Below are positions 19,020-35,130 of a stretch of DNA of 64,000 bases, one piece after another. The notes under the pieces were generated by a model. It had not been told where the DNA came from. It worked only from the letters and a program-made list of their open reading frames with translations, and did no database searches. Made by a program: the position numbers and the translations under genes. The stretch is from the NCBI GenBank assembly GCA_963774955.1, contig CAVZGV010000004.1, positions 3,522 through 67,521 on the forward strand, written 5' to 3'. Positions within the stretch are counted from its first letter, which is position 1. Every line of letters starts with the position of its first letter. The DNA is from Candidatus Falkowbacteria bacterium. Its GTDB lineage: Bacteria > Patescibacteriota > Patescibacteriia > CAIXNZ01.

Positions 19020-19640
19020 TGAGGACGAACTTCCGGATGTCTTTATAGACGAAAATCGGCTTGTCCTCAAAATTTTTGGCGAGACGACATTGGGACTGTT
19101 TAGCTAACGTGCAGATGTGTGTCTCGCCCCTTTTTCTTTGCCGCTGGCTTTGAGCTTAGGGCTCTGGGCTAAGAGCTTCAGAGCAAAGGGGACGACGAGG
19201 TTGTTGATTTATTAAATTTAATAATGACCTGTCCCCTAAAAATTTTGCAGACGAGCAGTCAGTTGTTGTTTGAAAACAACGAGAAGAAGGTTGTCCGCAA
19301 AATTGGGTGAGACGCTAGAAATGGTGCTATATCATAGCGTCGTAGAAGTTGTCTCACCCTACTTTAAAATTTAGTGATTGGTGAATTGGTTAAGAAGTTA
19401 GTTTAGTGAAATGTGTTTGGTGAAAGTTAATACACTCAACACCATGGCCCAAACTAACCTCCTTACCTTTCCACTATTCACAAAAGCAATATTTTGCGGA
19501 CGAAGAAGTTCCTGTCTTAATTAAGACGTTTTGGGGCTTGTCCGTAAAAAAAACAGGGTAAGACGAGTGCGGCTCTGTTTCTAAACTTACAAAGACATGT
19601 CTTACCCAAAAAAAACCCCACGCAAAAGCGAGGGGATTTT
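19020..19640 (-). repeat. Inverted-orientation copy (about 2.5 units) of the A/B/C/D hairpin-box array family
   Basis: Reverse complements of boxes are readable in order: tgtcctcaaaatttttggcgagacga (A), tgtctcgcccctttttctttg (D), caaaggggacgacga (C), tgtcccctaaaaattttgcagacga (B), plus the long variant sub-element. Confidence 0.8.
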
Positions 19641-19655
19641 TATTTGCTGAAAATT

Positions 19656-20051
19656 TTATTGAACCTGATGACCAAACTCTTCATCTTCCTTATCCTTATC
19701 AGCCTGTTTTTTGGTTTTATGAATTCTAGCGTCAATGTGGTTTGGCGGGCAGTAAACAGTCCAGACCTTCAAAGCGCCTTTGCCGGTATTGATTACATTG
19801 TGTTTAGTTCCCGGGGTAACAATCAATATATCGCCTTTAGTCGCCACTGATTCCACTCCATCCAAAACAACCTTAGCCTCGCCTTTTTGGAAAAAGAAAA
19901 TTTGTTCCACACTGTTATGCACCTCTTCTCCGATTTCACCATTTTTTTTAATACTCATAACAACCAACTGGCTTTTAGCACCGGTAAAAAGCACCTGGCG
20001 GAAAAATTTATTTTCCTTGGTTGACTTGGTAATGTTTGATTGATAGGCCAT
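19656..20051 (-). CDS. Cupin-domain protein
   Basis: 131 aa with a cupin-like G-x5-H-x-H...E...G...H pattern (GEEVHNSVEQIFFFQKGEAKV...GTKHNVINTG). Confidence 0.6.
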   Translation of the reverse strand: MAYQSNITKSTKENKFFRQVLFTGAKSQLVVMSIKKNGEIGEEVHNSVEQIFFFQKGEAKVVLDGVESVATKGDILIVTPGTKHNVINTGKGALKVWTVYCPPNHIDARIHKTKKQADKDKEDEEFGHQVQ

Positions 20052-20102
20052 ACTTTTATTTTATAAATTAATAAGCTACAGCAATTATACCATTTTGACT
20101 TT

Positions 20103-20135
20103 AAAAAGAAAACCGTCCCGCAGTACGGGACGGTT
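20103..20135 (-). terminator. Rho-independent terminator for the HD-domain gene
   Basis: On the minus strand: aaccgtcccgtactgcgggacggtt followed by ttctttttaa. Confidence 0.7.
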
Positions 20136-32395: not shown

Positions 32396-32434
32396 GCAAA
32401 ACTTTCTGTCATGACATACTTATTTTGCTTCCCC
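32390..32434 (-). terminator. 12-bp-stem hairpin (ggggaagcaaaa/ttttgcttcccc) immediately 3' of the recombinase gene, with a U-tract on the minus strand
   Basis: Perfect inverted repeat. On the minus strand the hairpin is followed by ttttctctg. Begins exactly where the D-box consensus breaks. Confidence 0.6.
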
Positions 32435-34080
32435 GAGATTTAAAACAGTTGATCAGGCAACTGCTTCTGCGCCAGCCGAAGCTGAGTCAGAGCGCCGACT
32501 GCGTTCTGACCGTGTCGGAAATGAGGCAGACCCTGCTGTTCATTTTCCAGATGGGTCCAGGTGTCGTAGATATATTCCACGAACTTGGTCGCTGTGCGCC
32601 ACAGGGCCATCTTGTGGATATGGCCGTCATTGTAGGCGCGCTTGTGATGCTTCTGGTCCGGGCAATCATCCCACTTGACCAGCTGACCGTCTTTGGAACA
32701 GTCCTTGCAGATCACATCGGGATGAGCGGCCCTGAGCTTGACCTTGTACTCGCGGAGCTTGATTCCCCAGTCCGAATCGGGCCGGCGGTTGAACTGCTCG
32801 GCGATCAGGTACAGCGCCTGACGCGCTTCACCGGACCAATTAGCCAGCTCCCCGCTACGACGCCGACGGAACTGTCCTTTACTGTCCACAGAAACACCGC
32901 AGTAGCTCTTGAGCTTGGCTTTGCCGGCGGTAACTTTGCCGTCAGGCCGAAAGTATCCTCGAAACGTCTGATGTCGCCGATGGCGACCATGAGCCGAGCC
33001 GAGATTCTGGGACCACAGCCCACCACAGGAGAAAAAACATGCTTGTAAACTTCCATGGTCTGCAAATGTTTTTCCAGCTCCCTCGGCCCGGGAATTTTCC
33101 TCGGCCACCAGAGCCTGAAGCACTTTGTCCCGCTTTTTAGCCCAGTCATAAGCCAGATCCATAACGCCGCGCGCCCAGAAGGCAAGAATGTGTTCGTCTT
33201 CTTTCTTGTGCTTCTTGTCAAAAGGCTTTTTGGCCTCGCCTTCGATGTAGAGATCGGTCTCTTCCGTGAACTTGGAACCGATCAGCCACTGAAACAGGCG
33301 CTGTTCATAAGCCATCCTAGCTTTCATGGCTTCCTGCCAGGTGACGAACTTGATGCGTAGCTGAATCAGGTCACGATCACGGGGAGATACGGATTGGAAA
33401 AGATCAGCCGAACGCTGATACAACTTGATAAGGTTGGTTGCGTCCTCGTCCTTCTTGTCTTCGCCACGAAACTTCTTCAGTTCCGAAGGAACCACCCGCT
33501 CCACTTTAGCACCTATGGTCTCACCGCGCCGGGACATGGCAAAAGCCAGATAGTCGCCGGAACCGCCCAGAACCATGAGCACGGTATCACCGGCCTGAAG
33601 GCCGTCATAGGTCGCCGGCACCTTGGTCAGAACTTCCCAGACCTTGTCCTCGTTTTTACGAGTCCAGCCTTTGGGAAAATCCTCGGACTTCTCGTCCTTC
33701 TTCATCTTGCGCCAATCGCAATGATGGGGCGAAAACTTGGAAACGTCTTCACCATCGGCCACCACCCGCATGGAAAAAGGGTATGTGCCTTTGACAAAAT
33801 CCATTTCCGCGGTTTCGTCCCTGAGTTCGAAAGTACGGAACTTACCGGCTTCAAAGACCGCCACCTGGGTAGGTTTGGCCTCTTGTTCCTGGTTCCGTTT
33901 CACCCGTGCCGAATTCCGATCAGTCTGCCCATGTTTTACTACTCCTTTGCTGAAATTTTCGTACCCTTTTGGGTACAATATTAAGAACATCCCACTACTC
34001 TAGCGGGATTTACTACCTTAACTGATTATCTTGACTTTGTCAAGTTTGGGCTAATATAAAAGCTTCCCCACGGATGAGGA
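32393..34080 (-). mobile_element. About 1.7-kb IS110-family-like insertion (single recombinase ORF, no obvious terminal inverted repeats) interrupting the hairpin-box array
   Basis: The array consensus stops at 32392 within a D box and resumes near 34085-34127. The intervening DNA is about 50-55% GC against about 35% for flanking genes. Confidence 0.45.
32440..33990 (-). CDS. IS110/Piv-family-like (DEDD-type) recombinase with a roughly 75-150-aa N-terminal extension and a C-terminal CxxC...C...H zinc ribbon
   Basis: C-terminal KLKSYCGVSVDSKGQFRRRRSGELANWSGEARQALYLIAEQ resembles the IS110 Transposase_20 core as recalled (SYxGLxPxxxQSGxxxxRGRISKxGNxxLRxALYxAA). MRVVADGEDVSKF resembles the N-terminal VGIDVSK DEDD motif. 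High-GC codon usage is foreign to the neighbourhood. Confidence 0.5.
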   Translation of the reverse strand: MFLILYPKGYENFSKGVVKHGQTDRNSARVKRNQEQEAKPTQVAVFEAGKFRTFELRDETAEMDFVKGTYPFSMRVVADGEDVSKFSPHHCDWRKMKKDEKSEDFPKGWTRKNEDKVWEVLTKVPATYDGLQAGDTVLMVLGGSGDYLAFAMSRRGETIGAKVERVVPSELKKFRGEDKKDEDATNLIKLYQRSADLFQSVSPRDRDLIQLRIKFVTWQEAMKARMAYEQRLFQWLIGSKFTEETDLYIEGEAKKPFDKKHKKEDEHILAFWARGVMDLAYDWAKKRDKVLQALVAEENSRAEGAGKTFADHGSLQACFFSCGGLWSQNLGSAHGRHRRHQTFRGYFRPDGKVTAGKAKLKSYCGVSVDSKGQFRRRRSGELANWSGEARQALYLIAEQFNRRPDSDWGIKLREYKVKLRAAHPDVICKDCSKDGQLVKWDDCPDQKHHKRAYNDGHIHKMALWRTATKFVEYIYDTWTHLENEQQGLPHFRHGQNAVGALTQLRLAQKQLPDQLF

Positions 34081-34099
34081 AGCTTAAGGACACGCTTTC

Positions 34100-35130
34100 T
34101 TTCGTCAATAGTGACAGCGAAGAAGTCGTCCACTAAATATTATTTGGTGAATAGCGTAATGGTAAAGATGCAAGATAGGTGTATAGTGCCAAGTGTTTAA
34201 GACACCAAACACACTACACTAAACCTACTTCCTAACCCATTCACCATTCACTAATTTTAAAAGGGGTGAGACACCGGCGTCAGTGTTTTTTTAAACATCT
34301 GATACATCGTCTCACCCTTGGCCAGAATCCAAGTGGTTCTAGCCGATTTTTACGGACACTTCCTTGCTCGTTTTGGAAAAAAACATTTCCCTGTGCGTCC
34401 GCATAATTTTTAAGGGGAACATGGCCTATTTAATTTTTATAGAAAAATAGTAGCGCCTTCGTCCCCTTTTCTCTGCTTTGGCTTATGGCTAATGGCACAT
34501 GGCTTATAGCAAAACAAAGAAAAGAGGGCGAGACATGGCCCATAAAGTTCACAAAATGAACAGCGGCTTCAACGTCTTACCCAAATCTACAGACAATCTT
34601 GCGTTCGCATTGAGCATCAAGACATTCGTCTGTACATTATTAGTGACAGATGCGCATTAGTTTAATAAACACTCACCTGCACGTCCCCTTTTCTCTGTTT
34701 TGAGTTTATGGCCGATGGCATATGGCTTATGGCATATGGCTTATGGCAAAACAAAGAAAAGAGGGCGAGCAGTATCATCGTCGATTTGACAACATCCAAC
34801 TCGTCTCGCCCATAGCCAGAATTTATAACCCATCACCCTTGTGCGTACTAACTATCTGATTCTGGCCGATTTTTGCGAACATCTTTTGTATCATCTTATA
34901 AAGATAACAATCCCGTTCGTTCGCAAAATTTTAATTTGTGCATAGTGTAAAGGTAAAGATGCATGTTAGGTGGATAGTGTAAAGTGTTTTAGACACTAAT
35001 CACATTCACTAAACCAACTTCCTGACCTATTCACAATTCACTAATTTTTAAAGGAGGCGAGACACCTAGCAATCTTGTTTAAATTGAATTAAACATGCGA
35101 TTCTTCGTCTCGTCCAAAGGACATAATGTT
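34100..35130 (+). repeat. Hairpin-box array, right part: about 4.5 units including A boxes carrying extra mini-hairpin insertions and two long variant units
   Basis: D boxes at about 34258, 34515, 34750, 35044. A-variants cgtctcacccttggccagaatccaagtggttctagccgatttttacggaca. C boxes at 34450, 34681. Confidence 0.8.

Follow-up and report, generated by a model that had tools for sequence, protein, structure and literature searches.

Do two hairpin-box arrays that lie in opposite orientation around a block of genes form a DNA switch? The question is raised by a 64,000-nt stretch of a Candidatus Falkowbacteria genome (contig CAVZGV010000004.1, positions 3,522 to 67,521; hereafter the window), in which a small array of 0.6 kb (19020-19607) and a main array of 5.5 kb (29609-35185) have the same architecture and opposite orientation. 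A preliminary description had taken the small array for a reverse-complement copy of the main one, pointed to a recombinase in one arm, and proposed that the roughly 10-kb block in between might invert or that the arrays might be spreading. We conclude instead, with a probability of about 0.8, that both are stem-loop arrays of the tandem interspaced guide RNA (TIGR) type, belonging to a TIGR-TasR system in a genome of the candidate phyla radiation (CPR)/Patescibacteria, and that the 10-kb block stands in its ancestral orientation and is no inversion device. What resembled inverted repeats plus a recombinase is thereby reclassified as a known RNA-guided system rather than a DNA switch.

Geometry and unit architecture of the arrays

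The inverted geometry is real and far above chance. The window has 51 copies of the half-unit ACA-N9-TCGT, as read on the plus strand of the main array, where 4.3 would be expected: 41 copies lie on the plus strand at 29616-35181, 7 on the minus strand at 19025-19578, and 3 are strays. When the small array was compared with the main array by blastn, 20 of 21 high-scoring segment pairs were inverted, which bears out the description of two inverted arrays around a gene block. The small array is not a reverse-complement copy of the main one, however; the two have architecture and stem classes in common. Repeat finding returned many short inverted matches, the best of them covering 93 nt at 72% and 73 nt at 82% identity. 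The arms are 72-75% identical over at most 217 nt, their longest exact inverted match is 16 nt and comes from a generic stem motif, and no spacer pair recovered by parsing the small array reappears among the pairs recovered from the main one.

On the strand opposite to the one first described, each unit begins with a 5' stem half (ending in GAC), CGN, a 9-nt spacer, UG and a short A/U-rich hairpin, and continues with CGN, a second 9-nt spacer, UG and a 3' stem half (beginning with GUC); CGN is box C and UG is box D. The stems enclosing the units measure 6-13 bp, and the inner hairpins are of the kind GUUGUUUGAAAACAAC. Strict parsing recovered 16 units in the main array, 5 in the small array and 1 stray in the rest of the window, and relaxed parsing recovered 34 and 6 in the two arrays; with one more small-array unit parsed by hand (19245-19300), the total across both is ~41. 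Three stem classes recur, A (GGGCGAGAC), B (UUUUGCGGAC) and C (GGGGAC), and A, B and C units together with a linker hairpin, D, make up a higher-order period of ~225 nt, which Tandem Repeats Finder detected. Some periods have, in place of C and D, a hairpin of ~115-140 nt, here called LONG (the 'long variant' of the preliminary description).

We assigned the arrays to the stem-loop TIGR type because this unit form matches the published architecture: in the CPR TasR clade, the loop between the spacers holds a hairpin (PMC12045711; bioRxiv 10.64898/2026.09.09.750476), and CGN-N9-UG ... CGN-N9-UG units, palindromic stems and an inter-spacer hairpin were all present in the window. Published stem-loop arrays have a mean of ~7 units (bioRxiv 10.64898/2026.09.09.750476). 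At gathering thresholds, Rfam matches in the window were confined to tRNAs, with none in the arrays. Clustered regularly interspaced short palindromic repeat (CRISPR) arrays have a near-identical direct repeat of 23-50 nt that alternates with unique spacers of similar size, and usually lie with cas genes. A CRISPR array was rejected on architecture, given the four alternating box classes and the hairpin-enclosed pairs of 9-nt spacers; the window open reading frames (ORFs) scanned contained no cas domains.

The main locus (29.6-35.2 kb) is laid out on the minus strand as an upstream sub-array, tasR and a downstream sub-array. The upstream sub-array (34090-35185, minus) has ~8-9 units and two LONG elements (34144-34258 and 34935-35048), and a terminator-like hairpin called by the terminator scan (34060-34085, minus) lies between it and tasR (32440-33932, minus; CPR TasR clade). 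The downstream sub-array (29609-32400, RNA sense minus) has ~26 stem-loop units in the ~225-nt period of A, B and C plus the D linker, includes LONG elements at 31530-31644 and 31771-31912, and has an intrinsic terminator at its 3' end, which is that of the main array (29579-29608, minus; terminator scan).

The gene in the arm

Is the gene within the main array a recombinase? Pfam gave no match for its 516-aa ORF (32440-33990, minus), and a single-sequence PDB search gave a weak one (E = 0.031). The ORF has 617 homologs, nearly all from Patescibacteria/CPR and many carrying PF02371 (IS110 Transposase_20). A profile of 27 family members had a sole match in PDB, 9mty_A, the TIGR-TasR structure of TaTasR (E = 3.6e-21). 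With the AlphaFold2 model of an intact ortholog, P0001 (predicted local distance difference test score 88, predicted template modelling score 0.81), the top Foldseek matches were 9mty_A/B (E = 4e-10), followed by the IS621 and ISCro4 bridge-RNA recombinases and then by TasH. Profile, Foldseek and PF02371 together identified the Nop-like (IS110 C-terminal) RNA-binding domain and coiled coil of TIGR-Tas proteins.

The N-terminus of the family is conserved as M-x-R-x-IGIRH. At the position of the first RuvC catalytic Asp, the window's protein has R (IGIRH), and the 27 members have R, Q, V or L, never D or E. CsTasR, with R8 at the matching position, is nuclease-dead, and members of the CPR TasR clade are RNA-guided DNA binders and repressors rather than nucleases or recombinases (bioRxiv 10.64898/2026.09.09.750476). 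The supposed recombinase is IS110-like, but it is a TasR of the CPR clade with the first catalytic Asp substituted, and not a demonstrable recombinase.

The tas gene is not intact in this assembly. Its authentic start is an ATG at 33932 preceded by an AAAGGAG ribosome-binding site; the frame from there reads MGRLIGIRHG and then meets a stop after codon 10. An out-of-frame ATG farther upstream opens the 516-aa ORF, which reads through by chance. Compared with L002, a locus whose tasR is 95% identical, the gene has four frame-disrupting indels, at 33906 (-1), 33084 (+1), 32952 (-1) and 32512 (+2), one of which is in a homopolymer run. The damage reflects either a pseudogene or an assembly error.

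Orientation of the intervening block

The block between the arrays (19656-29470, minus strand, with LysM/M23 on plus) is a conserved set of housekeeping genes that extends from a cupin gene through HD_4, a 230-aa protein, H+-PPase, LysM/M23, a 180-aa protein and ComM to a 358-aa HATPase_c_2/DUF4325 protein; the genes named by domain or family are those that had been listed for it. The H+-PPase (20904-24524, minus) is broken into four ORFs matching Pfam H_PPase profile positions 1-63, 84-302, 316-510 and 519-645, whereas in relatives it is intact, at 661-663 aa. The interval between the array terminator and the 358-aa gene contains, directly upstream of the latter, 5.2 perfect tandem copies of an 11-nt sequence (TTAGTTGACGA, 29475-29531), which overlap a strong promoter-like site, TTGACG-17-TATAAT, and look like an operator or iteron array.

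To place the block in relatives, we compared contigs with and without TIGR units. Two TIGR-less Logan contigs (L083 and L084) have a cupin gene 93% identical to the window's and ~76-85% nucleotide identity in most shared genes (LysM, 69%). L083 covers both flanks of the block and contains no TIGR unit. Its order is dksA-lspA-(0.6 kb)-ComM-LysM-PPase-230aa-HD-cupin-(250 nt)-SMC, with all segments collinear with the window from 36383 to 15330; L084 overlaps this order from PPase to SMC. On L085-L087 (cupin 82% identical) and on L174, a 245-kb contig, the cupin gene adjoins a convergent SMC gene without any array and in the same relative orientation as in the window, as far as the contigs extend. 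Two TIGR-bearing loci agree: L001, of the GCA_026395755.1 lineage (TasR 76% identical), keeps the order tasR-array-ComM-LysM-PPase, and L002, of the ERZ25039527 lineage, is collinear with the window from lspA through the arrays. The window's cupin protein was also found on a Logan contig of ERR12035938. A genome-contig search with ComM as query returned relatives of at most 59% identity, too distant for synteny, and the contigs L092 and L093, with close cupin orthologs, end 22-113 nt from the cupin gene, too short to show a small array there.

Two insertions set the window apart from the TIGR-less relatives: one, from 35491 to 28392, is the TIGR-tasR locus with the 358-aa gene, and the other, from 19656 to 18031, is the small array with two small genes. 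Because the TIGR-less relatives are collinear with the window, in L083 across both flanks, gene order indicates that the block is in its ancestral orientation relative to both flanks. The preliminary description had named the same gene order in related genomes without the repeats as evidence that would speak against an invertible segment, and it is what the relatives show.

We therefore give almost no credence to the idea that the arrays are inverted repeats at which homologous or site-specific recombination flips 19640-29600, even as a rare event within a population. The real inverted geometry, the IS110-related gene inside one arm, and the recombination of direct repeats within the main array (whole-period indels relative to L002 and a 71-nt exact duplicate) speak for it. 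Against it, every comparator, array-bearing or not, has the block in one and the same orientation relative to the flanks that it covers; the arms match exactly over no more than 16 nt, and the two arrays show no homogenisation; and GC skew does not change sign between the block and its right flank. Exact matches of 16 nt, or 75% identity over 217 nt, are too little for efficient RecA-type exchange, and the arms are probably poor substrates for homologous recombination, although they may share a short site-specific crossover site. Nor is there a dedicated invertase: the sole recombinase-like gene within the structure is tasR, which is frame-disrupted here and belongs to a family with no acidic residue at the first catalytic position, and the only bona fide recombinase among the window ORFs scanned is Xer-like and lies outside the structure. 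That large inverted repeats drive inversion of this segment is not supported.

The satellite array and its surroundings

The small array and tasR are 12.8 kb apart and on opposite strands, whereas the main array adjoins tasR on the same strand. We refer to the small array as the satellite (19020-19607, RNA sense plus; delimited by motif hits, unit parsing and folding). It comprises seven stem-loop units, one linker hairpin and one long hairpin, all on the plus strand. A unit with the stem GAGGAC (labelled X, 19020-19069) is followed by an A unit (GGCGAGAC, 19078-19128), the linker hairpin D (19129-19186), a C unit (GGGGAC, 19187-19237) with a degenerate second box C, the hand-parsed B unit (TTTTGCAGAC, 19245-19300), an A unit (19305-19359), a LONG palindromic element of a dispersed intergenic hairpin family (19367-19484), a B unit (19492-19549) and an A unit with a degenerate second box (19556-19607). 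Five of the seven units are intact; units 3 and 7 lack the second box C. The order first given, A, D, C, B, A, long, A, was right in part but missed two units, the parse being X, A, D, C, B, A, LONG, B, A.

A G+C-rich hairpin with T-runs on both sides (19608-19650) is a terminator common to the satellite (plus) and the cupin gene (minus). The terminator scan called a minus-strand site at 19633-19616, and by eye the plus strand reads CCCCACGCAAAAGCGAGGGG followed by ATTTTTATTT. As this hairpin is bidirectional, the orientation of the terminator at the 3' end of the satellite was uninformative as strand evidence. A promoter scan upstream of the satellite found no strong promoter.

Also upstream of the satellite is a 185-aa gene that overlaps with an 84-aa gene for a CXXCXGXG zinc-ribbon protein; the terminator of the two is at 18920-18945 (together 18142-18945, plus). 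Both genes are absent from L083 and L085-L087, and L174 has the 185-aa gene at the same site. The 185-aa protein has only three relatives in 5.8 billion proteins and had no match in a metagenome scan. We rejected it as a TIGR accessory or small Tas protein: it has so few relatives, and it is not TIGR-linked because L174 carries the same-site copy without an array. The terminator hairpin at 18920-18945 (plus) and another at 20111-20135 (minus) are nearly identical (CCGTCCCGUAC(U)GCGGGACGG) and inverted, bracketing the satellite and the cupin gene; they may be another small family of reused palindromes.

Strand of the guide RNA

Which strand would carry the guide RNA was assessed from related loci and from folding. 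All 17 array units of L001 are on the tasR strand. In 80 metagenomic tasR loci with TasR relatives 35-80% identical, surveyed with the unit detector used for the window, 529 units were on the tasR strand and 4 on the opposite strand. Every same-strand unit was within 3.4 kb of tasR, and no opposite-strand array was found within 10 kb of tasR in these loci, a survey range that falls short of the satellite's 12.8 kb. The main array folds more stably on the minus strand (-325 kcal/mol) than on the plus strand (-235 kcal/mol), whereas the satellite does so on the plus strand (-222 versus -198.5 kcal/mol on minus). Given the agreement of the L001 units, the strand counts from the 80 loci and the folding energies, we infer that the main locus is read on the minus strand and the satellite on the plus strand, so that both would be transcribed toward the intervening block. 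An opposite-strand satellite is unusual. A guide array can evidently be on the strand opposite to tas and over 10 kb away from it, where finders centred on tas would miss it.

Array dynamics and origin of the satellite

Within the main array, a 71-nt exact direct repeat (30102-30172 and 31454-31524) and the duplicated spacer pairs CTGTTCCTC/GTAGAGCCA and TGTCGACGA/GTTCGTAGC were found; the segments 34336-34410 and 34857-34931 were compared. Relative to L002, the main array has whole-period indels flanked by direct repeats. Recent unit duplication together with these indels indicates that the main array changes length by unequal crossing-over. One of its units, at 34129-34090 (CTTCTTCGC/AAGAAAGCG), is orthologous to L001 1030-1067.

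The satellite's own resemblance is likewise to L001. Its period A-D-C-B (19047-19314) is collinear with L001 358-622 at 72% identity, and the spacer pair of unit 19078-19128 (CATTGGGAC/GCAGATGTG) is identical to that at L001 847-882 and absent from the window's main array and from L002. In L001, the satellite-like units are directly upstream of tasR, in direct orientation. As such units are found upstream of tasR in L001 and at the cupin gene in the window, array units have evidently moved between sites in one of the two lineages. The suggestion of array spreading thus holds in a weak sense, as a lineage-specific insertion at a second site with a spacer pair common to the L001 units upstream of tasR.

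The same likeness could be a relic of one past inversion that broke within an ancestral upstream array, leaving a portion of it at the block's far end. Such an event would account for a satellite period collinear with L001 units upstream of tasR and on its strand, and for the identical spacer pair. However, an inversion of this kind would turn the block around between lspA and SMC, whereas the window's order, lspA-ComM...cupin-SMC, is shown to be ancestral by the TIGR-less relatives. Moreover, L001 has two copies of the CATTGGGAC/GCAGATGTG pair, so that paralogy or duplication is equally possible, and its contig ends inside the array. We regard a past inversion as highly improbable and prefer an insertion of array units at the second site.

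What, then, was at that site before? A LONG profile built from ten array copies detected the element, an imperfect hairpin of ~115-140 nt whose ends are conserved (UUAGUGAAUGGUGAAUGGGUUAGGAAG ... GCAUCUUUACCUUUACACUAUUCAC), outside TIGR arrays too, and also in relatives that lack them; its usual place is after a terminator and before the following promoter. In the window, copies outside the arrays lie at 52580-52704 and 53591-53707 (minus), each after a terminator and before a conserved promoter-like box. In relatives, LONG occurs after SMC in L085 (7395-7506) and, with no TIGR units, immediately after the cupin terminator in L092 (~990-1065). In L083, a weak profile match (10437-10601) falls in the cupin-SMC spacer, in the position and orientation of the satellite's LONG. 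The satellite would then have been inserted beside a dispersed palindrome already resident there in the same orientation.

A LONG element already present at the cupin-SMC site suggests ectopic recombination or conversion at LONG copies as a possible seeding route. The wider proposal, that ectopic recombination or gene conversion at LONG carries TIGR arrays of this lineage to new sites in the chromosome, we consider quite unlikely. If it were true, arrays would grow and colonise loci by whole-unit duplication and recombination rather than by dedicated spacer acquisition, and trans-acting satellites on either strand would be normal and overlooked by finders that search the tas neighbourhood.

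The 30-nt box AAATTGGTTGRTGTTTGTCAACCGATATTT next to the two outlying LONG copies is conserved at 52530-52560 and 53535-53565, upstream of two consecutive minus-strand genes (AIR-synthase-related and Hpt-domain). It is likely a shared promoter or operator.

Proposed function and decay

Under the interpretation of both arrays as TIGR arrays, the satellite would be transcribed toward the cupin gene and end at the terminator it has in common with that gene. Each unit is predicted to fold into a stem enclosing two 9-nt spacers, each between a box C (CGN) and a box D (UG). Judging from CsTasR, a dimer of TasR on such an RNA would recognise an 18-bp DNA site, and the complex would act as a nuclease-dead binder or repressor. 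The inverted geometry would be a by-product of where the second array was seeded, namely the cupin-SMC intergenic region, which probably held a LONG element in the same orientation already in TIGR-less relatives.

Differences between orthologous units of the window and L002 were confined to 0 of 95 positions in boxes and 2 of 155 in stems, compared with 9 of 172 in spacers and 6 of 92 in loops. Recent constraint on the RNA scaffold would be expected to give this pattern.

Several observations weigh against the interpretation as a whole. The direct orientation of the satellite-like period upstream of tasR in L001 calls for at least one rearrangement in one lineage. The satellite's LONG is 75-78% identical to the array copies and 54% identical to the L083 copy at the same site, so the two may be similarly placed without being positional homologs. 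The four frame-disrupting indels in tasR and the two degenerate satellite units make present-day function doubtful, and the system may be decaying in this assembly. Finally, a search of the 64-kb window for composite 18-bp targets in both spacer geometries yielded 3 sites at no more than 3 mismatches, compared with ~2.4 for shuffled spacers, which is no significant excess.

One 3-mismatch match, at 18965-18982, is to the target of unit 34634-34588 (reverse complement of A plus B); it is just upstream of the satellite, beside a TTGACA, and is within chance.

A stronger form of decay would make the satellite, perhaps even the whole locus, non-functional debris, a decaying remnant that is neither expressed nor used. 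We hold this to be doubtful, though it is a serious contender. It would fit the four tasR indels relative to a 95%-identical ortholog, only one of them in a homopolymer run, the loss of the second box C from satellite units 3 and 7, and the lack of a strong promoter in the scan upstream of the satellite. On the other hand, between the window and L002 the boxes and stems have changed far less than the spacers and loops, the satellite has five intact units out of seven, and the indels may be assembly errors, since the H+-PPase too is in pieces. We favour a TIGR-TasR system, possibly a decaying one.

Comparison with known systems

The locus most resembles the stem-loop TIGR-Tas systems of CPR (for example, CsTasR; PMC12045711; 10.64898/2026.09.09.750476). 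It is like them in a RuvC-like N-terminal part with the first catalytic residue substituted; in a coiled coil and a Nop/IS110 C-terminal domain; in two 9-nt spacers with box C, box D and an inter-spacer hairpin; and in arrays on both sides of tas with a terminator at the end. It differs in having three stem classes and a linker hairpin in a ~225-nt higher-order repeat, ~41 units against the mean of ~7 per array, dispersed LONG palindromes inside the arrays, one sub-array that is on the strand opposite to tasR and 12.8 kb away from it, and a frame-disrupted tasR. The higher-order repeat, the size of ~41 units, the embedded palindromes and the remote opposite-strand satellite go beyond the descriptions in PMC12045711 and 10.64898/2026.09.09.750476.

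IS110/IS621 bridge-RNA recombinases have a homologous fold (Foldseek matches 8wt6/8wt9 and 9t56), and many TasR homologs match PF02371. Unlike in those enzymes, the first acidic residue of the DEDD motif is absent from this TasR family (27 members). Those recombinases have one bridge RNA within a mobile element, whereas the window has a tandem array of many guides and a tasR that is not mobile among relatives but occupies a fixed locus.

Hin/Gin/Fim switches and shufflons also have inverted repeated sequence around a gene block. In contrast to these, the window locus has no dedicated invertase and no evident shared long or unique crossover site, and its block consists of housekeeping genes rather than of a promoter or variable gene, seen in a single orientation in all relatives. 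LONG is like repetitive extragenic palindromes and bacterial interspersed mosaic elements (REP/BIME) in being an imperfect hairpin of ~115-140 nt after terminators in several intergenic regions, but its copies are also embedded in TIGR arrays.

Orphan or satellite CRISPR arrays offer a parallel as secondary guide-RNA arrays away from the effector gene that presumably work in trans; the window arrays differ in having dual short spacers in hairpins and no cas genes. TIGR arrays are not known to have an acquisition machinery. How the arrays expand and where their spacers come from was left as an open question in the founding paper (PMC12045711). The comparison set used here, which consists of one genome with the TIGR system, an ortholog of 95% identity that differs by whole-period indels, a locus with rearranged units whose TasR is 76% identical, and sister genomes without the system, allows insertion sites and array dynamics to be reconstructed.

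Other features

A XerC/D-like tyrosine recombinase of 316 aa (45443-46393, plus), with Phage_integrase and SAM-like N-terminal domains, is encoded ~10 kb outside the arrays. Two loci whose TasR is 45-48% identical have genes for bAvd (an accessory protein of diversity-generating retroelements) and CXXCXGXG zinc-ribbon proteins ~5-8 kb upstream of tasR (L089 2051-3556 and L091 4063-5258); that the window's 84-aa gene and these genes have the CXXCXGXG motif in common may be a coincidence.

At the far left, window positions 1-14000 have a G+C content of 50-54%, compared with ~37-43% elsewhere, encode ferritin-like and twin-arginine translocation (TAT)-signal proteins and a sortase, and contain coding 18-nt tandem repeats at 2000-2080 and 4432-4560. 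This region abuts a tRNA cluster. Within 14045-14454, Rfam but not ARAGORN called a 117-nt tRNA (14152-14268), which may be an intron-containing tRNA.

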